Assembly: GCF_006345805.1 (NCBI RefSeq)
Contig: NC_043010.1
Coordinates: forward strand, 45,260,001 to 45,324,000
Direction: 5' to 3'
Source: Octopus sinensis
Lineage: Eukaryota
DNA length: 64,000 bases
Shown here: positions 2,261 to 61,990 of the stretch, piece after piece
Layout: every line of letters begins with the position of its first letter
How positions within the stretch are numbered: position 1 is the stretch's first letter
The notes under the pieces: model-generated
Told to the model about the DNA's origin: nothing
What the model saw: only the letters and a program-made list of their open reading frames with translations
Database searches by the model: none
Program-made: the position numbers and the translations under genes

Positions 2261-2491
2261 TATTTCTTTATTACCTACAAGGGGCTAAACACAGAGGGGA
2301 CAAACAAGGACAGACATAGGTATTAAGTCGATTACATCGACCCAGTGCGTAACTGGTACTTAATTTATCGACCCCGAAAGGATGAAAGGCAAAGTCGACC
2401 TCGGCGGAATTTGAACTCAGAACGTAACGACAGACGAAATACGGCTACGCATTTCGCCCGGCGTGCTAACGTTTCTGCCAGCTCGCCGCCT
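2261..2491 (-). mobile_element. SINE family A, young Tx1-type tail, full length with 14-bp TSD
   Basis: TSD ttacaacagaaacc at 2247-2260 and 2492-2505; tail ends aataaagaaata on the minus strand. Confidence 0.9.
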
Positions 2492-2890
2492 TTACAACAG
2501 AAACCGGGAGGGATGCCATTGACAGCCTAAAATTTCATAAAGAGAACAAAGAACTCCCTCATTGTGCCTCGTCCACAAGCACCTACATGTGTAGTACCTT
2601 CTAGTGGTATGTTGAATATTTCAGAAAAAGCACCTGAAGTACACCGTTCGTATTATATACCAAACAACGAACAATACTGAGAGGTGTGGTTCATTTCATC
2701 GTATATTAAATATATGTACGATTTTCATTGGCTCGTCCGGAGATACGGATATGGTGCCTGTAGAGCGCTATATTAAATATATGTACACTTTATGCATTGG
2801 TTATGTCACATTCTTTACATGAAATTACGGGGTGTCACTGTCGTCACTTCCGGTTTCTATCAATTTATTTTTCAATATTTTTAGGACCGC

Positions 2891-3165: not shown

Positions 3166-3750
3166 ATTCTTTTCTGCACTAGGCATAAGGCCCGAAATTT
3201 TGGGGGAGGAGGCCAGTCGATTAGATCGCACCCAGTATGCAACTGGTACTTAATTTATCGACCCCGAAAGGATGAACGGCAAAGTCGACCTCGGCTGAAT
3301 TTGAACTCAGAACGTAACGGTAGACGAAATACCTATTTCTTTATTATCCACAAGGGGCTAAACACAGAGGGGACAAACAAGGACAGACACACGGATTAAG
3401 TCGATTACATCGACCCCAGTGTGTAACTGGTACTTAATTTATCGACCCCGAAAGGGAAAAAGGCAAAGTCGACCTCGGCGGAATTTGAACTCAGAACGTA
3501 GCGGCAGACGAAATACCTATTTCTTTACTACCCACAAGGGGCTAAACACAGAGGGGACAAACAAGGGCAGACACGCGGATTAAGTCGATTACATCGACCC
3601 CAGTGTGTAACTGGTACTTAATTTATCGACCCCGAAAGGATGAAAGGCAAAGTCGACCTCTGCGGAATTTGAACTCAGAACGTAACGGCAGACGAAGTAC
3701 GGCTACGCATTTCGCCCGGCGTGCTAACGTTTCTGCCAGCTCGCCGCCTT
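3166..3750 (-). mobile_element. Nested trimer of SINE family A
   Basis: One head followed by three bodies; two internal junctions read aa(g/t)aaagaaata|ggtatttcgtct on the minus strand (about 3333 and 3517). Confidence 0.9.
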
Positions 3751-5904: not shown

Positions 5905-6228
5905 ATGCTATAGCCCCGGGCCGACCAATGCCTTGTGGATGGATTTGGTAGACGGAAACTGAAAGAAGCCTGTCGTATATATGTATATGTATATATATTT
6001 ATGTGTGTGTGTGTGAGTTTGTGTGTCTGTGTTTGTCCCCCTAGCATTGCTTGACAACCGATGCTGGTGTGTTTACGTCCCCGTCACTTAGCGGTTCGGC
6101 AAAAGAGACTGATAGAATAAGTACTCGGCTTACAAAGAATAAGTCCCGGGGTCGATTTGCTCGACTAAAGGCGGTGCTCCAGCATGGCCGCAGTCACATG
6201 ACTGAAACAAGTAAAAGAGTAAAAGAGT
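5905..6228 (+). mobile_element. SINE family B (central microsatellite), 5'-truncated
   Basis: gtggatttggtagacggaaactgaaagaagcc...gactgaaacaagtaaaaga, matches the copy at 31685-32080. Confidence 0.85.
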
Positions 6229-8189: not shown

Positions 8190-8590
8190 TTACTCTTTTA
8201 CTCTTTTACTTGTTTCAGTCATTTGACTGTGGCCATGCTGGAGCACCGCCTTTTGTCGAGCAAATCTACCCCAGGACTTATTCTTTGTAAGCCTAGTACT
8301 TATTCTATCGGTCTCTTTTGCCGAACCGCTATGTTACGGGGACGTAAACACACCAGCATCGGTTGTCAAACGATGTTGCGGGGGGGGGGGACAGACAGAC
8401 ACACACACACATATATATATATATACATATATACGACGAGCTTCTTTCAGTTTCCGTCTACCAAATCCACTCACAAGGCTTTGGTCGGCTCGAGGCTATA
8501 GTAGAAGACACTTGCCCAAAGTGCCACGCAGTGGGACTGAACCCGAAACCATGGGGTTCGTAAGCAAGCTACTTACCACACAGCCACTCT
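8190..8590 (-). mobile_element. SINE family B, near full length
   Basis: Reverse complement of the family B sequence including the head gagtggctgtgtggtaag. Confidence 0.9.
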
Positions 8591-31684: not shown

Positions 31685-32080
31685 GCGAGTGGCTGTGTGG
31701 TAAGTAGCTTGCTTACCAACCACATGGTTCCGGGTTCAGTCCCACTGCGTGGCATCTTGGGCAAGTGTCTTCTGCTATAGCCCCAGGCCGACCAATGCCT
31801 TGTGAGTGGATTTGGTAGACAGAAACTGAAAGAAGCCTGTCGTATATATGTATATGTGTGTATGCGTGTGTGTGTTTGTGCGTCTGTGTTTGTCCCCCTA
31901 GCATTGCTTGACAACCGATGCTGGTGTGTTTACGTCCCCGTAACTTAGCGGTTCGGCAAAAGAGACCGATAGAATAAGTACTAGGCTTACAAAGAATAAG
32001 TCCTGGGGTCGATTTGCTCGACTAAAGGCGGTGTTCCAGCATGGCCGCAGTCAAATGACTGAAACAAGTAAAAGAGTAAA
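31685..32080 (+). mobile_element. SINE family B, full length
   Basis: tRNA-like head (tggctgtgtgg, ggttcagtccc), ttgggcaagt, central microsatellite, (gtaaaaga)n tail. Confidence 0.92.
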
Positions 32081-32739: not shown

Positions 32740-33560
32740 ACACACACGCGCGCGCACATGAACACACACAGACACAAAGACTTATCTTCTTTCTGGTGGA
32801 TAACTCATAATAGACCCCACTTTTCTTCATACCATGATATATGTAAACACAAGAGAGGATGATGTGATTTCAGCATAAACAGATTCGTGTAGGTAAAAGA
32901 TTGTGCTAGAGAATAGTGATCTAACTTTGTGGTTTAGACATATATGCAAGACACAAGATACGATTTTAACGGATACTTCTATCCACAGCACGTAATGGCA
33001 GACGAAATACGACTACGCATTTCGCCCGGCGCGCTAACGTTTCTGCCAGCTCGCCGCCTTCAGACAGAAAGGTATTGAAAGAGAGAACGAGTGAAGGAGA
33101 CCGACAAATACACTTTTCACACACACACACACCCACACACACACAACCACACACACACACATACACACACACAACACACACACACGCGCGCGCACATGAA
33201 CACACACAGACACAAAGACTTATCTTCTTTCTGGTGGATAACTCATAATAGACCCCACTTTTCTTCATACCATGATATATGTAAACACAAGAGAGGATGA
33301 TGTGATTTCAGCATAAACAGATTCGTGTAGGTAAAAGATTGTGCTAGAGAATAGTGATCTAACTTTGTGGTTTAGACATATATGCAAGACACAAGATACG
33401 ATTTTAACGGATACTTCTATCCACAGCACGTAATGGCAGACGAAATACGACTACGCATTTCGCCCGGCGCGCTAACGTTTCTGCCAGCTCGCCGCCTTCA
33501 GACAGAAAGGTATTGAAAGAGAGAACGAGTGAAGGAGACCGACAAATACACTTTTCACAC
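32740..33560. repeat. Tandem duplication, 438-bp period
   Basis: Identical non-repetitive sequence at offset 438, bounded by (CA)n. Confidence 0.95.
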
Positions 33561-38692: not shown

Positions 38693-38925
38693 AAGGCAGC
38701 GAGCTGGCAGAAACGTTAGCACGTCGGGCGAAATGCTTAGCGGTATTTCGTTTGCCGTTACGTTCTGAGTTCAAATTCCGCCGAGGTCGACTTTGTCTTT
38801 CATCCTTTCGGGGTCGATAAATTACGTGCCAGTTACGCACTGGGGTCGATGTAATCGACATAGTCCCTTTGTATGTCCTTGTTTGTCCCCTCTATGTTTA
38901 GCCCCTTGTGGGCAATAAAGAAATA
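38693..38925 (+). mobile_element. SINE family A, Tx1-type tail, inserted in a SINE head (site A)
   Basis: Junction aataaagaaata|agaaacgttaacacgccgg. Confidence 0.9.
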
Positions 38926-39159
38926 AGAAACGTTAACACGCCGGACGAAATGCTTTGAGGTATTTCGTCTGTGTGAGTTTGGATTTATTGGTAATTATTA
39001 TTGGAGTGCGTCTGTATAGTAAGTGCAAGTTTTTATTGACTGTTTTTGTGACATTTCCAGTTATAATTATTGTTCTTGTTATAATTATTTGTGTGATAGT
39101 CTTCGTTCGAAAACTATCGTGTGTTTTCCCCTGTGGGGGAAACATTAATTGCTGGCAAG

Positions 39160-40532
39160 ATGTCGAAAAGTGTAACTTCGTCTGGCGAAGAGTCGTTAAC
39201 CGACAGGAAGGCAACAAAGATAGAAAGTTTAATATTTGGCGATATTTCGGATTCTTCTGAAAGGGAATTTCACCAACCATCAATGTGTATTGTTGTAAAG
39301 AAGAATATTGACGTGAAAAGCCTTCAAACAGAAGAAAATAACCAAAAAAGAAGTTTTGCGTCGGCGGCTGGAGGTGGAACCTGCCAGCTGTCGACAGACA
39401 AAAATGACCTGATAAAGTACGAAGATATGATAACAATTGAAGACGGTGTTGTGAAGGTTCAACCCCCGGAAGAACTATTAATGTTAGAAAAAAGAAAAAC
39501 AATTATTTAAAAATTTTACAGTCTAAAAGGAAAAAAAATTGTGCGAAGAGAAAGTTGAGAAATGCTTGAAACCCATCTGGCAGGATACCACATACCTAAT
39601 CAGAGGGAAGAAGTTTGGTACTATCAAAGTACGACTAAAAGATATAGAAACTGCACAAATGCACTCAGTTAAATCTTTAGAAACGGAGGACGTTGTTTTA
39701 ATTCCAGTATATATGGGAATGAGGACGTCAAAGATACGTATACGAAAGGTTCCACCTCAAGTCGACCCTATGTGATTGATAATATAGGAAGATAATATAA
39801 CAAAAAATATAAAAGAAAATATAACACAAAAAGTATAAAAAGGAAGATAATATAACACTCCTTCAGGCTACTGTCACAGAAAAGGCTTATTGGACCGGTA
39901 AAACGGTTCACCTCCTAATACAAGCAGAACAGTCAATTTTGGAACAGTTACTGGAGAAAATAGAAATTGGGGAGGAATTCCTTAACGTATTCGTCGAGGG
40001 GCGTAAGCTCCGATGTTTCCAATGTGGCCAGCTGGGCTATATAAAAAAAAACACTGTAGAGACGACGAGGAAGAATCCGATGGGGAGGAGGAGGAGGAGG
40101 AGATAGGGAGAGAAACAGAAGAAAAGAAAGCAACTAACAACAAGAGAAAAATGGAAAGCTCAAATCAACCAAAACAGGTCGAACTAAGACCAAAAAAGGA
40201 ATACTGCGAAAAGAGACAAACCAAAAATAGTAAGGAAGGAAGCAGAAGACAGAGGGATAGTCGCGTTATACAGCAAAAATGAAGATTTAATGAGAGAAAT
40301 AAAAGCGAAAAGATCAGCCGCTAGGATTGCAGAACTTTCTGATAAATATAAGCACTATGAGTTCTACGAAATGGATGAAAAGACTCATAATGTATTACTT
40401 AACACGTATACTCGTAGAAAGTCGGTGTCGATGATGAGATTGGATTTAATCAATCCATTTTTCAAGACTTGCCACCTCCGAACCCTTCAAGAAAAGGTGG
40501 AGAGTCCCTTTCCGCAGGACACCCCGGATTAA
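39160..40532 (+). pseudogene. Tx1 ORF1 (gag-like), disrupted
   Basis: LIPVYMG...IRIRKVPP; VFVEGRKLRCFQCGQLGYIKK.C zinc knuckle at about 40012-40058; acidic and basic tail; frameshifts. Confidence 0.75.
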
Positions 40533-43500
40533 ATATGCGTAAATGTTCATGGCCTGATGTCTAGCTGGAAGCAAGGGCGCTTCCTAAATGACATCAGGTC
40601 AAGAACATTGGTTGTAATTGTTGCAACGGAAACTCAGGTGAAGGAGCCAAGAGATCTGCTCCCCTTCCTGAACGGCTATGAGAAATACGTTTCTCTGAGT
40701 CGGGCGGGAGGTGTTGGTGGGGTTTTGGTTCTACTAAAAAGAAACCAGGTAGCCGAGAAAAAGTTGTTGGTTTTTTTCTGATCCAGAAGGCAGGTTGGTC
40801 GTTCTCGACCTGACATTCAATTGTGGCAAGATAATCAGGCTGGTTGCAATGTATGCACCCAATGTTATGGGCTCGGAAAGTGAATATTTTCGTGACCTGT
40901 GCAAGTTCCTGGCCACGTCGCATTCGCTAGTATTGATAGGAGACTTTAATACAATCGATGACGCACACACAGATTGAGTTGGCTCGAACAGGAATAGAAA
41001 ATGTAACCCTGGCTTACGGGATCTGCTAAGTCACTTTCAGCTGGCAGATCCATATAGGATAGAACACCCGAACACTCCACAGTGGACGTGGTCAAATAGT
41101 GACGGGTCTTCCATAACATATCTAGATAGGGTTTTAATTAGAAAAACAGATATGTCCATAGCCAAGTGTTCACAGTTTTATCTAGTCAGCTACAGTTGTC
41201 ACAAGATGGTTACCTGTAAGCTGACAGTAGATAAGTTGCAGACAGGGATCTGGCTACTGAAAACTCAATACGTCCCTTTTGGCGATTGAGGAGTACAAAA
41301 AGCAGATCGAGATGTTAATACAGAGGGCATTGACAGGTACCATCATTAATAACAAATGGTGGTACACCCTAAAAAGAGCCATAAAATATGAGTCTATTAG
41401 GTTTTGCATAAGTTAGATAAGAATAAGAGATGGTCTAGTTAAGGAACTAGAAGAAGCCTGGAGGACTGGCAATGCGGACCAAGTGAAGGTGAAGAGACTG
41501 GAGCTGAACCAGCATCTTGAAACCCAACACATGGGAAGTATTGCCAGAGCTAAGTTACGTGCGATGGGAAGTGAAGGAATTAAGGCTGCTGGATGGCCCC
41601 GAGTGGTGGAAGCTCGACAAGGAAATAGGTCTACTATTCGGTCTTTGACGAATCAAAATGGTGTCTTGGTAAACGAACCCGAGAAAATGTGTGAGGTACT
41701 TCGCCCAGCTGTTCGGGGGTGATGGCGGTCCTGATGGTCCTCGAGGACTTTCTTGCCGAGCTGCGTGCCTCTCGGGGTCGGATACTGAGTCTTGCGAAGG
41801 GCCGATCACGCCTGTGGAGGTAATGGAGGCTATGGCCGACTGTAAAGCGGGTAAGTCGCCGGGAATTGATGGTCTTCCGTACGAGCTGTATAAATGTATG
41901 CCAGACTTGTTCGGGCCCTACTGGATGATGTGCACGCGAACTGACAACAGAATGGGTTTATCCCCAGACCTGTGCGCCGAGGAGTAGTGACGTTGGTCAG
42001 AAAGGACCCGGACAAGAGGGACGTTTTAGATAACATCAGGCCCATCACTCTGTTAAACGCAGAAGTGAAGATTTAGGCCATGATCTTAGCAAAAAGGTTG
42101 GCGCGTGTCGCGAATTGTATAGTCGAGAAGGCACAGACATGTGCCATTGCAGACAGAACCATCCAGGATAATCTCTACCTTATTCACTATACCATAGAGA
42201 GGGTTGGTGATAAATCTGGCAAAGGTAGGGCATTGGTACATTTGGCCCAGTCTAAAGCTTTTGATAGGGTTGACCATCGATACCTGACGACTGTGCTTGC
42301 GCGGTTCGGCCTAGGTCTTGGCTTCCTCAGGTGGTTTATCACTTTGTATCACAAGATTGACTCGATAGTTCGGGTGAACGGTTTCCTTTCGAAGCCGTTC
42401 TGCATCAGGCGCTCGGTTCGTCAAGGATGTCCGCTCTCACCACTTTTGCATGTGGTGACTCTCGAAACCCTACTGCGAAGGTTGAGTGGCATCCCGAGAG
42501 AACTAGGTTTAGAGGAGTTTGTTACAGCTTATGCGGACGATATCACTATCAGCGTAACCACACTAGCAAACCCACGTGAAGTGGGTAAAGCTATTGAGGT
42601 TTATGAGACGGTGGCAGGAGCAAAGATTAACCGGGAAAAGTCAGTCGGCTTGCAACTCGGCACCTGGGTTGGCAAGTTGATGCCTTCAGACAGTGTTGTT
42701 GGGCGCTGGACAGAGGGACCGGTTAACTTGCTGGGAGTCTGGTTTGGACCAGGCCTCCAGATAGAGAAGAAATGGACGGAGGTTTCGAACAGGGTGGCTG
42801 CAGTTGTCAAGACCTGGTATTGGCGGTGGCTATCCTTAAAAGGGAAGGAGGAGGTGGCCAATATGTTTATCGCATCGGTCATTACCTACCGCCTGACAGT
42901 CGTGCCCTTTCCGGATTCATGGTTGATCAAGTTGGAGAGACAGCTCTTTCGCTTTTTGTGGGAGGGCAGGTTGCGACTTGTGAAACGCTCCGTCTGTTGT
43001 CAAAAGCCGTTAAAGGGAGGTTTAGGGATACATTGGTTAATGATGCGCAGGCATGCGTTGAGGTTGAGATATCTCTGGATTCTCCTGGCTGGTGAACGGA
43101 TGTGGTCTTCACTGGCCAAACAAAAGTTCCACGAGTTCAAAAATGTTTGCAAACAGGAAGCCTGGTGTTTTCGTAGACCGAGGTCGAGTGAATGACATAA
43201 AGAGTACCGTAAGGCCCTCCTGCTACTCCGGCGCTCGGGCAACGCCAGCGGTGGGGGCTCTACACGAATTTTAGATATTGGGTTGGTAGAGTCTGGATGT
43301 GACGATGGCCTGGAGGCGACTCTAGGTCTCGGGTTTATTCAACTGGATAGCCTGTTCCATTGTACATTCGGGTTGATAACGTTGGACAACTTCCAAAAGT
43401 CTTTGACCTGGCGATGTTACAGAGGTGCCTTGCCCGTTTGGGATAAGACATGGTAAACGTCAGTCTCCGACCTGTCCAAGATGCGGGGGAGACAGGGAAA

Positions 43501-43880
43501 CCGTCCCTCACGCTATTGTCCAGTGTCCGGAGATATCTGAAATGTGGGTTTAAGCTGAACACCTGTTGTCCGGCGAAGGAAGAGTACGGCTGTTGACTGA
43601 GTCAATTATAAAAATTGACCCACCGGAAGTTTTAACAAGCGAAGGTAAGGATTATTTTCTCACGGTTGTAGCAATAGAGAAAGAGGCACTATGGAAGACT
43701 AGGATAAAAGGGATTGAGACAGATAACTTTATCTCCGGCCACTATTTACGATTTTTTTTTTTTTTTACTTTTCATTTGGAAAGGAAGGTGTGGCTGGAGA
43801 AGAGGTCTCTGTCGGAGAGTATGTTCAAAAAGAGATGGAAACATGTTGCACAAGTGTTGTGCGTGCAAGGAACCGTGTGA
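40530..43880 (+). pseudogene. Tx1 ORF2 (APE endonuclease - RT - CCHC), disrupted
   Basis: VNVHGL, ATET, LIGDFN, WTW..YLDR; KSPGIDGLPYELY, RPITLLN, KAFDRVDH, RQGCPLSP, YADD; CPRCGGDRETVPHAIVQC. Confidence 0.93.
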
Positions 43881-44344
43881 ATAGGCTATAAAAGAAAAAC
43901 AAAAAAAGTACCAGCGATAGATCGGGGCTTGTGGGGTCGGAGCGTGGCCTCATCATCGCTACATTTGTGCTGTCTGTGTATTGTTAATTTCATTCGATTT
44001 TAAAAAAATTTTAACATAATTCTTATATTCATATTTTATGTAAAATCATAACATATTACTGATCCCAATCAGTTGTTTTGTCCATTTCTGTGTTTGGCCC
44101 CCTGTGGGCAATAAAGAAATTGGTATTTCGTCTGCTGCTACGTTCTGGGTTCAAATTGCGCCGATGTTGATTTTGCCTTTCGTCGTTTCGAAATTAAGTA
44201 CCAGCTGCGTACTGGGGTCGATCTAATCGACTAGCCCCTCCCCAAAATTTCGGGCCTTGTGCTTAGAGTAGAAAAGAATATAGGTACATAAAAACACAGA
44301 AGCATTTCAAGAGGAATAAGTTAGAGATAACTTATTATCGTAAC

Positions 44345-46369: not shown

Positions 46370-47015
46370 TAAAGGCGTCGAGCTAGCAGAATCGTTAGTA
46401 CGCCGGGCGAAATGCTTAGCCGTATTTCGTCTGCCGTTACATTCTGAGTTCAAGTTCCGCAGAGGTCGACTTTGCCTTTCATCCTTAAGGATGAATTGTC
46501 CAGCGGTGGGGGGGGGGGTGAGCAAACGCAAAGACAAACAGTTACACACACATAGCTTCTTTCAGTTTCCGTCTATTAGATACTCTCAGAAGGTTTTGGT
46601 TGGTCTGGGCCTATTAGTAGAAGAAACTTGCCCAAGTGCCAGACAGTGGGATTGAACCTGGAACCATGTGGTTGGGAAGTAAACTTCTTACCACAAAGCC
46701 ACACCTGCACCTTTTAGTTCGGAAAAAAAAATTGGAGAAATGTTCTTGGTAGTGGTGCTTCTAAATCAAGACAGTGACAAATTAAGTACCAGTTATGCAC
46801 TGGGGTCGCTATAATCGACTTAATCCCTTTTGTCTGTCCTTGTTTGTCCCCTCTATGTTTTGCCCCTTGTGGGCAATAAAGAAATAAGAATCGTTAGTAC
46901 GCCGAACAAAATGCCTAGCAGCATTTCTTCCGTCTTTACGTTCTTAGTTCGAATTTCACCGAGGTCTATTTCACCTTTAATCCTTCCCAAGTCAATAAAA
47001 TAAGTACCAGTTGAG
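46370..47015 (+). mobile_element. SINE family A dimer (site A junction) interrupted by a 289-bp copied segment
   Basis: Junction aataaagaaata|agaatcgttagtacgcc at about 46886; insert at 46494-46782. Confidence 0.85.
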
Positions 47016-47544: not shown

Positions 47545-48405
47545 CATTTCTACTTCAGGCACAAGACCTGAAGTTTGAAAGAGGGGAAAATTCGATTGCA
47601 TTGACCCCAGCATGCAACTGGTATTTTTTCATTGACCCCGAAAAGAAAGCAAAGCAAAGAGGACCTTGGTACAATTTGAACTCAGAAGGTAAAGACAAAC
47701 AAAATACAGCTAAAGAATCTTTTGCTCGGTGGGCTTAACAATTCTGACAGCTCGCCGCCTTAATTGCGATTTTTAATATCTTTTGCATTATTGACAAAAA
47801 GCCTGAAATTTGGGTGGGGAGAGCCGAGTCGATTACATTGGTGCTTATTTCATAGACCCAGAAAAGATGAAAGTCAACGTAGGTGGAATTTGAACTCAAA
47901 ACATAAAGATTGAAGAAATACGGCAAAGCATTTTATCCGACGTGCTAAAGAATTGCCATTTTTAATATCGCCAACATCTGGTGAGCTGGCAGAAACGTTA
48001 GCAAGCCGGGCGAAATGCTTTGTGGTATTTCGTCCGCCGCTGCGTTCTGAGTTCAAATTCCGCCGAGGTCGACTTTACCTTTCATCCTTTCGGGGTCGAT
48101 AAATTAAGTACCAGTTACGCACTGGGGTCGATGTAATCGACTTAATCCCTTTGTCTGTCCTTGTTTGTCCCCTCTATGTTTAGCCCCTTGTGGGCAATAA
48201 AGAAATAAGAATCGTTAATACGCCGGGTAAAATACTTAGTGGCATTTCGTCCATCCTTAAGTTCTGAGTTCAAATTTCGCCGAGGTCAACTCTGCTTTTC
48301 ATCCACTCGGAGTTGATAAAATAAGTACCAGTTGAGTACTAGGGTCGATGTTATCGACTTACCCCCAACCCCGAACTTGCAGACCTTGTGTCAAAATTAG
48401 AAGCA
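47545..48405. mobile_element. SINE family A cluster: two minus-strand copies and a plus-strand dimer
   Basis: Site A junction at about 48207, aataaagaaata|agaatcgttaatacgccggg. Confidence 0.85.
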
Positions 48406-51127: not shown

Positions 51128-51532
51128 ACTTTTACTTGTTTCAGTCATTTGACTGTGGCCATGCTGGAGCACCACCTTTTAGTCGAGCAAATCGACCCCA
51201 GGACTTATTCTTTGTAAGCCCAGTACTTGTTCTATCGGTCTCTTTTGCCGAACCGCTAAGTTACGGGGACCTAAACACACCAGCATCGGTTGTCAAGCGA
51301 TGTTGGGGGGGGGCAAACACAGACACACAAACACGCACATACATATATATATACATATATACATATATACAACGGGCTTCTTTCAGTTTCCGTCTACCAA
51401 ATCCACTCACAAGGCTTTGGTCGGCCCGAGGCTATAGTAGAAGACATTTACCCAAGGTGCTACGCAGTGGGACTGAACCCGGAACCATGTGGTTGGTAAG
51501 CAAGCTACTTACCACACAGCCACTCCTACGCC
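51128..51532 (-). mobile_element. SINE family B, full length
   Basis: Close reverse-complement match to 31685-32080. Confidence 0.92.
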
Positions 51533-52734: not shown

Positions 52735-54010
52735 CGCTATCAATTATTTTATCTAACCCAAAAAGGATGAAAGGCAAAGTCGACCGCGGCAGTACTTGAA
52801 CACAAAATGCAAAACGGGATGCCATACTGCAAACCATTCCGTCCTGCGTGCAAACGATTCTGCCAGCTCGCCGCCTTAATAATTCTTTCTGCAAGGCGGC
52901 GAACTGGCAGAAACGTTAGCACGCCGGGCGAAATGCTTAGCAGTCTTTATGTTCAGAGTTCAAATTCAATCAAGGTCGACTTTGCCTTTCAGCCTTTCGG
53001 GATCGATAAAATAAGTACCAGTTGCATACTGGGGTCGATCTAATCGACTGGTCCCCTTCCCCAAAACCTCGGGCCTTGTGCCTAGAGTAGAAAAGAATAA
53101 TTCTTTCTGCTATAGGCACAAGGCCTGAAATTTGCGGGAAGGAGAAGCTAAATTACCTCAATGCCAATACTCAGCTGGTGCTTTTTTTTTATATCAACAC
53201 GAAAGGATAAAAGGCAAAGTTGACCTTATTGGAATTTGTACTCAGAATGTAAAAGTCTGAAGAAATTCCCCGAAGCTTCTTATCCGGCATGCTAACCCCT
53301 TTACCAGCTCGCCGCCCAAGTAATCCTTTTTATTATAGGCACAATACAATTTTTTTTTTGGAAGGGACGATAGGTCGACTACATCGATCCCGGTGCTCAA
53401 CTGGTGTTTATTCCGTCGACCCTGAAAGGATGAAAGGCAAAGTGAACTTCGGCGGAATTTGAACACAGAATGTAAAGCCGGAAGAAATGCCAGCTCGCCG
53501 CCTTAATAATAATTTTTTCAACAATAGACACGAGGCCTGAAATATTGGGGGAGAAGGACTGTCGATTATATCGACCACAATGGTACTTATTTTATCGACC
53601 CCGGAAGAGATGCAAGGCAAAGTAAACCTCGGCGGAATTTGAACTCAGAATGTAAAAACGGACGAAATGCCGCTAAATGTTACCGATTCTGCCAGCTCAC
53701 CATCCCAATAATAATATTTTCTACTATAGGCACAAGGCGGAATTTGAACTCAGAATGTAAAGACAGACGAAATACCTATTTCTTTACTACCCACAAGGGG
53801 CTATACACAGAGGGGACAAACAAGGACAGACAATCGAATTAAGTCGATTACATTGACCCCAGTGCGTAACTGGTACTTAATTTATCGACCCCGAAAGGAT
53901 GAAAGGTAAAGTCGACCTTGGCGGAATTTGAACTCAGAACGTAACGGCAGACGAAATACGGCTACGCATTTCGCCCGGCGTGCTAACGTTTCAGCCAGCT
54001 CGCCGCCTTA
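52735..54010. mobile_element. Dense cluster of about 7 SINE family A copies
   Basis: Repeated gaaaggcaaagt..acc..ggcggaatttgaact; site B junction at about 53776. Confidence 0.88.
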
Positions 54011-59552: not shown

Positions 59553-60056
59553 GTAACTTTCATCTATTCGTAGCTACCATGATCGTTAAAATAGATGCCA
59601 GTGTAGAAAGTTATAATAAACCTTTATCGGCGGTAACATGACATCACGGTCATATTGGCCGAATAGGTATAATTGTTAGTTTCCCATTGGTTAAAATTAC
59701 CGCCCATATTTGAATTCTAACTTTCGTTAAAGAGAAATCTTTCACGAAATACGGTTCTTAAAATTCAGGTATGAGCAGTTATAAAACTCCCCGAAATTGC
59801 TGGCCTTGTGCCAAAATTTGAAGCTATTAATTACTCAGTACAATATTGAACAGTGTACTAGTTCACAATACCTTCAGACAGAAAGAGAAAGTTAATTGCT
59901 TTCCGCTTAGTCACAGTTATGATTACGACAGAAAACAAACTGCCGCTCTTTTAGGCAATTATGTGACACCTTTAGAAGCAATGACCTGCACATCTTCGAG
60001 ACCATTTTGACATCATCTGCGAAAATCTCTTCTGAAAACGAATCTAGATTTATTTT

Positions 60057-60460
60057 AGGAGTGGCTGTGTGGTAAGTAGCTTGCTTACGAATCACAAGGT
60101 TCCGGATTCAGTCCCACTGCGTGGCACCTTGGGCAAGTGTCTTCTACTATAGCCTCCGGCCGAATAAAGCCTTGTGAGTAAATTTGGTAGACGGAAACTG
60201 AAAGAAGCCAGTCGTATATATGTATATATATATATGTATATGTATGTGTATATGTTTGTGTGTCTGTGTTTGTCCCCGCAACATCGCTTGACAATCGATG
60301 CTGGTGTGTTTAGGTCCCCGTAACTAAGCGGTTCGGCAAAAGAGACCGATAGAATAAGTACAAGGCTTACAAAGAATAAGTCGTGGGGTCGATTTGCTCG
60401 ACTAAAGGCGGTGTTCCAGCATAGCCGCAGTCACATGACTGAAACCAGTAAAAGAATAAA
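60057..60460 (+). mobile_element. SINE family B, full length
   Basis: Matches 31685-32080. Confidence 0.92.
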
Positions 60461-61419: not shown

Positions 61420-61440
<21 letters not shown>

Positions 61441-61453
<13 letters not shown>

Positions 61454-61680
61454 GTTGTTGTTGTTTAGGTGGGAGCTGGCAGAATCGTTAGTACACCAGA
61501 CAAAATGCTTTGCGGCATTTCGTCCGTCGCTACGACCTGAGTTCAAATTCCACCGAGGTCTACTGTGCCTTTCATCCTTTCGGGGTCGATTAAATAAGTA
61601 CTAGTTGAACACTGGGGTCGATGTAATCGACTCATCCCCTTCCTTAAAAAAACTGCTGCCCTTGTGGCAAAATTTGAAAC

Positions 61681-61715
<35 letters not shown>

Positions 61716-61958
61716 TATTATTATTATTGTTGTTGTTGTTGTTTAGGTGGGAGCTGGCAGAATCGTTAGTACACCAGACAAAATGCTTTGCGGCATTTCG
61801 TCCGTCGCTACGACCTGAGTTCAAATTCCACCGAGGTCTACTGTGCCTTTCATCCTTTCGGGGTCGATTAAATAAGTACTAGTTGAACACTGGGGTCGAT
61901 GTAATCGACTCATCCCCTTCCTTAAAAAAACTGCTGCCCTTGTGGCAAAATTTGAAAC

Positions 61959-61990
<32 letters not shown>
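61441..61990 (+). repeat. Tandem duplication, 278-bp period, of a family A SINE between (ATT)n tracts
   Basis: Identical diagnostic variants at offset 278. Confidence 0.93.

Follow-up and report, generated by a model that had tools for sequence, protein, structure and literature searches.

A LINE lineage of Octopus sinensis inserts at a single position of an abundant SINE with which it shares its 3′ tail

Among Tx1-type long interspersed elements (LINEs), Mutsu and Dewa insert in a sequence-specific manner. So do Tx1L in Tx1D of Xenopus, Keno in U2, and Kibi and Koshi in microsatellites (PMC4494074). These are elements with two open reading frames (ORFs) and multicopy targets, in a clade that switches between microsatellites and other repeats; none of them is known to target a retroposon that depends on the LINE. 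The closest described system comes from crocodilians, where Tx1-Mar LINEs and short interspersed elements (SINEs) named SINEU have common target sites in the abundant transposon Mariner-N4_AMi (Kojima 2015, PMC4494074). Another kinship is that of stringent LINE/SINE pairs, which have a common 3′ tail, possibly with a small stem-loop; pairs involving the L1 clade are named for monocots and Chlamydomonas (Ohshima 2013, PMC3747384). Here we analyse a window of Octopus sinensis DNA, a stretch of 64,000 nucleotides (assembly GCF_006345805.1, contig NC_043010.1, positions 45,260,001 to 45,324,000), in which a LINE of 5,150 bp (38972-44121, + strand) interrupts a SINE. Genome-wide, the lineage of this LINE is inserted at one position of that SINE family, which carries a tail resembling its own. 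Relative to Tx1-Mar and SINEU, the new feature is that the target of the LINE is the SINE sharing its tail.

SINE positions are numbered 1-233 after the copy at 38693-38925 of the window (Table 1). The LINE enters its host at position 50. Upstream lies SINE 17-62 (38926-38971), downstream SINE 50-176 (44122-44239), and the 13-bp GGTATTTCGTCTG at 38959-38971, which is SINE 50-62, returns without a change at 44122-44134. The perfect 13-bp target-site duplication described by the sequence-only reading, an earlier inspection of the letters of the window, is therefore exact. Its proposal that the last ~45 nucleotides of the LINE resemble the tail of the family A SINEs also holds: 44077-44120 matches SINE 190-232 at 86% over 44 nt (E 1e-8), with a local alignment score of 64, the highest of 200 shuffles being 28. 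The host itself, however, is not a tail-bearing copy: its 3′ half ends in an older, B-type tail, and the SINE with the shared tail, at 38693-38925, is another element, which abuts the host at position 17. As for the GCCC/GGGC stem, it can form, and for 4 of 6 tails the fold predicted includes a hairpin GCCC/GGGC(T), but energies are no better than those of shuffles (z -1.26 to +0.48; 0/6 tails beat them). An AATAAA is present in the LINE tail at 44110-44115, where the commonest SINE variant reads AGTAAA; this motif may have a part in forming the 3′ end. Set against an intact relative, ORF1 and ORF2 show frameshifts and many stops: this is a dead copy, whose reverse transcriptase (RT) is still recognisable (Pfam RVT_1, E 2e-20).

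The behaviour of the lineage was followed over the 2.72-Gb genome with exact patterns, forward and reverse, which under-count old copies; reversed-pattern controls gave 0. The exact LINE tail occurs in 145 copies, and NGTATT follows directly in 137 of them; the threshold used by Kojima for target preference is >20% of flanks. The first 30 of these copies to be examined are all at position 50 (30/30), including four that miss NGTATT and display a mutated site or a small duplication there. Similarity searches tell the same story. With the last 272 bases of the LINE as a query, 30 copies fetched among the best 40 scored of 407 candidates all run into SINE position 50, the window copy included. 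With a query inside ORF2, devoid of tail and flank, 40/40 copies (the best 40 scored of 1,019 candidates) possess the tail and stop at the site. At the other end of the element, 28 of the 30 loci fetched for old-type 5′ ends were readable, and all 28 lie in SINE sequence, the 9-mer being found within two mismatches in 24. By chance one would expect little of this: there are 43,306 intact exact sites in SINE heads over 2 x 2.72 Gb, or 8e-6 per position. Insertions are base-exact, in the orientation of the SINE, with duplications of 13-16 bp, in the old and the young subfamily alike. Sequence-specific targeting of SINE position 50 by this LINE is established. The targeting claimed by the sequence-only reading is borne out, and neither of the findings that it named as contrary, random flanks or copies without the SINE-like tail, was encountered: the flanks are not random and the tail is in all copies. 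The second site that it put forward, AGAAACG, is used in no copy of the window lineage examined; a different sister lineage uses it.

Position 50 falls between an A-box-like TGGCAGAAACG at position 13 and a B-box-like GTTCAAAT at position 77, both called against the A- and B-box consensus. ARAGORN found 0 tRNA genes, and Rfam gave no tRNA match at E up to 10 and no family matching the SINE. A central conserved domain is the mark of MetaSINEs and CORE-SINEs; our SINE may resemble the octopus elements OR1 and OR2. These belong to the CORE-SINEs (PMC4824008, PMC4758252).

The window copy belongs to an old type, O, and shares 84-96% identity with other copies along the 3′ query. A young type, Y, is about 87% identical to O across ORF2 and the 3′ end and differs in its 5′ untranslated region (UTR) and ORF1 (about 65% DNA identity). 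The 20 Y copies retrieved at length are all complete or almost complete, in a sample of top-scoring matches that is biased toward complete elements; truncation is seldom seen, with 26 of 27 copies extending at least 1.5 kb. The Y elements are 99.4% alike and their SINE hosts only 90.7% (n=20), therefore the insertions were independent. The 13-mer is identical on both sides in 15/20, the host C or G at position 50 is the same on both sides in 20/20, and private host variants are common to both duplication copies in loci L095 and L107. Eight mismatches in the 260 duplicated bases around these copies (L091, L094, L098, L101, L109) may reflect CpG decay or RNA-templated junction bases. ORF2 is intact in 5/20 Y copies, an open frame of 1,134 codons (P0001) with the domains Exo_endo_phos, an apurinic/apyrimidinic (AP) endonuclease, RVT_1 and zf-RVT. 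It possesses the expected endonuclease, RT and zinc-finger motifs, with the roles they have in L1. ORF1 (P0002) is a separate frame upstream, 520 codons between stops, with a zf-CCHC match above the cut-off (E 9e-5); the domain search matched no RNA recognition motif in it. Many old copies (L013, L015, L019, L022, L039, L046, L049) have large internal deletions with both ends kept, and are possible non-autonomous derivatives.

Several features are those of the L1 group: an N-terminal AP endonuclease, the RT, a C-terminal zinc finger, a separate ORF1 and duplications of 13-16 bp. The best solved structure for P0001 is human L1 ORF2p (221 bits; R2, 76 bits). In a quick tree built without named reference families, P0001 keeps company with unnamed homologues and one protein auto-named 'Transposon TX1 149 kDa' (322 bits), with which it is not grouped at strong support. 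A type I ORF1 with a CCHC knuckle, as found in P0002, is consistent with Tx1 in non-mammalian animals (PMC5203782), and it is not exclusive to Tx1. Target specificity and the ORF1 type make membership of the Tx1 clade likely. The element retrieved only generic RT/endonuclease clusters from a protein-cluster atlas. In contigs from four sequencing runs, with four organism labels, the Y element is covered with few differences; no listed piece spans the LINE/SINE junction by 31 letters, and there is no RNA among the listed runs.

What, then, of the SINE? A random 200-kb sample contained only 13 tails, too few for rates, and genome-wide pattern counts were used instead. Exact tails come in three variants, CAA (11,087), TAA (15,892) and TAG (47,088, obtained as 62,980 minus TAA); the T variants, TAA and TAG, add up to 62,980, and all exact tails to about 74,000. 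T tails stand before position 50 in 28,694/62,980 cases (45.6%) and before position 17 in 233 (0.37%). For CAA tails the figures are 573/11,087 (5.2%) and 1,200 (10.8%), hence a double dissociation between the two sites. GGT follows 12,138/15,892 TAA tails (76%) and 875/11,087 CAA tails (7.9%). Outside SINE sites, 22 T-tailed insertions were examined and the duplication was recovered in 10: five have GGT at the start of both copies (L193, L205, L208, L130 and window 2261; 5/14 counting duplications recovered or read), three start TATA-like or ATT, two GGA or GAT. As GGT starts both copies, the motif was in the target before insertion. CAA-tailed insertions start AG(A/T)A, TATA or AATA. Junctions of SINE in SINE lack a doubled head: they have the form 1-233, 50-233, 50-end, and make up seamless 184-bp arrays. 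Self-insertion of the SINE at the site of the LINE, as had been proposed, is likely for the T-tailed subfamilies; the CAA-tailed copies, with which the sequence-only reading had compared the LINE, mostly avoid that site. Some T-tailed SINEs lie antisense within the body of a further SINE, at (G/C)GTACTTA near position 138, a third site (L085, L089/L190, L210).

The tail is not the privilege of the window lineage, although the later tests of its sisters rest on few loci. A search with a homologue brought out a far larger lineage, M, with 31,258 first-look candidates, a related tail followed by (ATT)n in 28/30 loci, and an ORF2 C-terminal half 61% identical to that of Y, with which it groups at a Shimodaira–Hasegawa-like approximate likelihood ratio (SH-aLRT) of 99 in the quick tree. 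Lineage M looks young (L221-L250), several copies having frames of 1,140-1,150 codons; two of them, L227 and L230, are 5.8 kb apart, which suggests tandem insertion. At two loci the tail precedes (TATC)-like repeats, with RT sequence upstream in one. Related tails before (TATC)-like and (CAT)n repeats (L119:6672 minus, L059; L116:7883) suggest further microsatellite-associated lineages. A third lineage stands at SINE position 17 in L284, L283 and L019, the first two selected by their junction pattern, with ORF2 sequence upstream in L284. Twelve further matches, found with a query that contained the junction and favoured position 17, divide into two at position 17, nine elsewhere (mostly with A-rich starts) and one without tail. 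The targets of this lineage are A(G)AA sites, SINE position 17 among them, a spectrum similar to the one shown by CAA SINEs. For the SINE tail, the score is 64 against O, 62 against the position-17 lineage, 60 against Y, 58 against the TATC lineage and 47 against M. Being about equally close to four sister tails, it does not identify a partner, as the tail of a stringent pair would. Judged from sequence comparison, the tail is a property of a LINE clade with differing targets, not of the window lineage alone.

To the reading that a LINE lineage targets position 50 of an abundant SINE and is the carrier of the T-variant SINEs, which share its tail and its site, we would give roughly seven chances in ten. 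The nick, the priming on the tail and the staggered second nick are borrowed from established LINE biology. The AP endonuclease would nick the bottom strand at the 49/50 boundary of the SINE, the 3′ tail would prime reverse transcription, and the duplication, which rebuilds the site on the 5′ side, would come from a nick in the top strand about 13 bases farther downstream. The SINE, which carries the tail of the LINE clade, would use ORF2 proteins in trans. T-variant SINEs would land at GGT sites, the SINE's own GGTATTTCG being the best of all, which makes the window lineage their most likely carrier; it is from these shared GGT sites that we infer mobilisation of the SINE by that lineage. For CAA variants the landing sites would be A(G)AA and TATA, position 17 among them, as in the sister lineage. 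Because the 5′ end of the SINE complementary DNA (cDNA) is homologous to the target head, the 5′ junction would close seamlessly, and head-to-tail arrays of 184 bp would grow. Each SINE landing in new DNA would add one intact head site. In this way the LINE would gain tens of thousands of low-cost landing sites, while splitting the promoter boxes of the copy it strikes.

That every new SINE is a landing site for both partners, as the earlier inspection had it, needs qualification. Y copies sit in intact SINE heads (20/20) and never directly behind a SINE tail (0/20); with old copies a SINE tail abuts the 13-mer at the 5′ end in 20/28. Either T-tailed SINEs later struck the rebuilt 5′ site, which would be a point in favour of self-targeting, or junction sites were acceptable to the old enzyme and the young one requires an intact head.

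A number of observations weigh against the favoured reading. T-variant tails are equally close to the tails of the window LINE and of the (TATC)-associated lineage (60, 60), and the window LINE itself has a CAA tail. More than half of the T tails are outside position 50, some in TATA tracts. Nearly all SINE junctions have G at position 50. Counted by eye in the first rows of listings, C stands there in 2 of 100 SINE junctions, 24 of 50 intact heads and 28 of 50 LINE junctions; with mixed heads, a near-constant G is not explained by plain copying of the target. A target-derived head is predicted for the first unit of an array and was not seen: 10 B-ended arrays have A-type heads, in a test of limited power, LINE-split B-type hosts also often having A-like heads. 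Array heads resemble the incoming subfamily, not the target. In six of 28 position-50 arrays, unit 1 shows C where unit 2 shows G. Among 62 junctions there was no 5′-truncated SINE with the target head upstream; two truncated units lack an upstream head (four in a looser count), 9/76 being truncated elsewhere. In 14 A-ended arrays, divergence is the same for the first and the last unit (0.068, 0.067). Private variants shared by the 13-bp stretches between units, looked for as a sign of hidden duplications, turned up in 2/28 arrays (L200, L215) and tell neither for nor against. The near-constant G, the incoming-type heads and the truncation counts fit an RNA that runs on into the following unit and overwrites part of the target, an earlier SINE wave, or arrays that sometimes move as units.

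The last of these possibilities, pushed further, is the alternative that survives best, and we consider it unlikely without being negligible: the LINE would target the SINE, and arrays would mainly be read-through transcripts of a few founder dimers, retroposed as units, self-targeting being rare. Four T in a row occur nowhere in the reference SINE, so that RNA polymerase III (Pol III) can read through it. The G at nearly all SINE junctions, the truncated first units without upstream head, the equal age of array units, and the single duplication around the whole array in L130, L138 and L200 are all as expected from movement in units. Yet GGT is in both duplication copies of solo T-tailed SINEs located in unique DNA, and it follows 76% of TAA tails, therefore GGT targeting exists outside arrays. 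Arrays moreover mix tail types and lengths, few truncated SINEs are to be expected anyway since young LINE copies are themselves rarely truncated, and SINE tails adjoin the 13-mer at the 5′ end of 20/28 old LINEs.

Somewhat less probable is that the LINE is no more than a parasite that uses the SINE as its target, and that the SINE is carried by other lineages of the clade, one of them an unseen GGT-cutter. The clade-wide distribution of the tail, the small size of the lineage (145 exact tails against about 74,000 of the SINE) and the strict site choice of the LINE, relaxed in the SINE, would all agree with this. Against it, no other GGT-targeting LINE was found among relaxed tails in about 1 Mb of loci, a sample biased to the queries, and the targeting of SINEU is also weaker than that of its LINE (13-90%; PMC4494074).

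The weight of the endonuclease itself may also be questioned. L1-clade elements can be tethered to Pol III factors, as TRE5 of Dictyostelium is, and the site might be set by such tethering, or by pairing of read-through RNA with the nicked strand, more than by endonuclease recognition. We find this as improbable as the preceding alternative. The site does lie between box-like motifs, Y accepts C or G at its first base and used intact heads only, and the constant G at SINE junctions fits an extension of the RNA; but GGT sites exist in unique DNA devoid of Pol III boxes, old LINE copies are found behind SINE tails, far from the A box (20/28), and sister lineages use microsatellites. RNA pairing may add to the choice made by the endonuclease. 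Finally, that the SINE half is part of the LINE 3′ end, that the tail is a separate truncated SINE, or that we see survivorship of insertions within SINEs can be set aside as extremely improbable, for these ideas have the constant flank in their favour and nothing further, against duplications on both sides of Y elements whose hosts are far more diverged (so that the SINE half is not part of the LINE), a tail contiguous with the LINE 3′ UTR in every copy read, and a base-exact position.

Compared with known systems, ours is nearest to Tx1-Mar and SINEU. In both, a Tx1-type LINE and SINEs share target sites in an abundant transposon, the partnership is deduced from the common target, the preference of the SINE is the weaker one (13-90% in SINEU), two sites serve different LINE families, and tandem insertions occur; co-transcription with the target is also mentioned in the same paper (PMC4494074). 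The differences are that SINEU, with heads derived from U1/U2 small nuclear RNA, has a third element, Mariner-N4_AMi, as its target, where here it is the SINE itself, and that for SINEU-1 no Repbase LINE corresponded to the 3′ half, where the octopus SINE shares a LINE tail and insertion is base-exact (PMC4494074). The sister lineages, with their microsatellites, recall the target switches within the group of Tx1L, Keno, Kibi and Koshi. With the stringent pairs our elements have in common the shared tail, in which a small stem-loop may form, but the text consulted describes no pair with the SINE as target of the LINE, and here several sister LINEs share one tail (PMC3747384).

Two classical situations are also worth recalling. 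L1 and Alu insert into the A-rich tails of older Alus, so that new copies create new targets; they use a short and degenerate motif, as against a single base of a promoter-bearing head in our case. R2 closes its 5′ junctions seamlessly through a homologous leader RNA, a likeness in that homology between cDNA end and target closes the junction, but its target is the ribosomal DNA of the host. In Octopus vulgaris, 13 recently active L1-Tx1 families account for 421 insertions (PMC13282606). The repeat annotations of octopuses probably contain both of our elements among their L1-Tx1 and SINE entries, with no targets, tails or partnership discussed in either text (PMC13282606, PMC8967140). A literature survey, with Repbase, Dfam, SINEBase and older LINE/SINE papers outside its reach, brought up no description of a LINE whose target is the SINE that shares its tail.

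A more ambitious picture can be drawn, which we hold to be tentative and rather doubtful as a whole. A radiation of LINEs with the common tail would have the SINE as cargo and also as landing site, at two base-exact sites of its head (17 and 50), forming a closed retroposon community in which each SINE subfamily follows one carrier or the other. Read-through SINE RNA with the target sequence at its end would help to guide its insertion and overwrite the target head, arrays would grow and old copies would be renewed by positive feedback, and ORF1-only relatives of the LINE would do likewise with a second SINE family.

This second SINE-like family, about 350 bp long and 90% alike, with an internal (TA)n tract, has several copies in the window, and its head also hosts family A SINEs (L208, L150). 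The ORF1-related family (L251-L281, e.g. G000:C5:44351246-44351625; L019:2347-3269 minus) shows no ORF2 separating the ORF1-like sequence from the tail. This tail is a different one; in the 8 copies, out of 15, that had enough letters past it, the flank starts (A/T)AGC, and this flank matches the head of the second SINE family at the boundary between GTAAG and (A/T)AGCTTGC; a second SINE-targeting system is likely. The ORF1-only element of L019 was tried as marker of a large position-17 family and dropped, its exact tail occurring once and its 15 relatives having a different tail. Two tandem duplications in the window are either recent or assembly artefacts: one of 278 bp at 61435-61990 (100% alike in one report, an offset check being not exact), and a 438-bp unit (32901-33100, 33339-33538) that holds a SINE head cut at position 75.

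Table 1. Coordinates, in the window, of the LINE, its host and other SINE features
Feature	Position	Strand	Remark
Young full-length SINE of family A with CAA tail; abuts position 17 of older host SINE	38693..38925	+	SINE reference
Host SINE, 5′ part (positions 17-62)	38926..38971	+	87% over 46 nt
Left 13-bp target-site duplication (SINE 50-62)	38959..38971	+	
L1/Tx1-type LINE of old subfamily O, dead, full length (5,150 bp)	38972..44121	+	5′ end concordant with 27 other copies
ORF1 remnant, frameshifts and stops	39133..40520	+	40-59% identity to intact CCHC-knuckle ORF1 P0002
ORF2 remnant (AP endonuclease, RT, C-terminal zinc finger), frameshifts and stops	40536..43877	+	74-90% identity to intact P0001
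3′ tail common to SINE family A and sister LINE lineages; GCCC/GGGC, AATAAA, without poly(A)	44077..44121	+	
Right 13-bp target-site duplication	44122..44134	+	
Host SINE, 3′ part (positions 50-176), then older B-type tail	44122..44281	+	79% over 127 nt; end of B-type tail by eye
SINE-in-SINE array, position-50 site (units 1-233, 50-233, 50-167)	3216..3750	-	
SINE 1-233 with TAG tail, abutting position 50 of a second copy	53736..54009	-	
Solo SINE (TAA tail) in unique DNA	2261..2492	-	13-bp duplication starts GGT on both sides
CAA-tailed SINE joined to position 17 of older copy (second site)	46776..47012	+	
CAA-tailed SINE joined to position 17 of older copy (second site)	47983..48361	+	
Copies of second SINE-like family	51178-51528, 60056-60406, 31687-32026, 8251-8589, 5908-6169		

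Target-specific LINEs normally rely on a repeat of the host or on a third transposon; the target is here the very element that the LINE clade would mobilise. If this is true, what is usually a parasite-of-parasite relation becomes a feedback loop, which may help explain the large SINE load of the genome, with at least 74,000 exact tails. SINE-in-SINE insertions, having no doubled head, are invisible as such and likely annotated as satellites or dimers. The octopus elements also offer a natural series for asking how AP-endonuclease LINEs choose their target, through the enzyme, the end of the RNA or tethering: young copies with open frames, sister lineages with ORF2 halves about 61% identical and other targets, and two variants of a SINE tail, three bases apart, that go to different sites.

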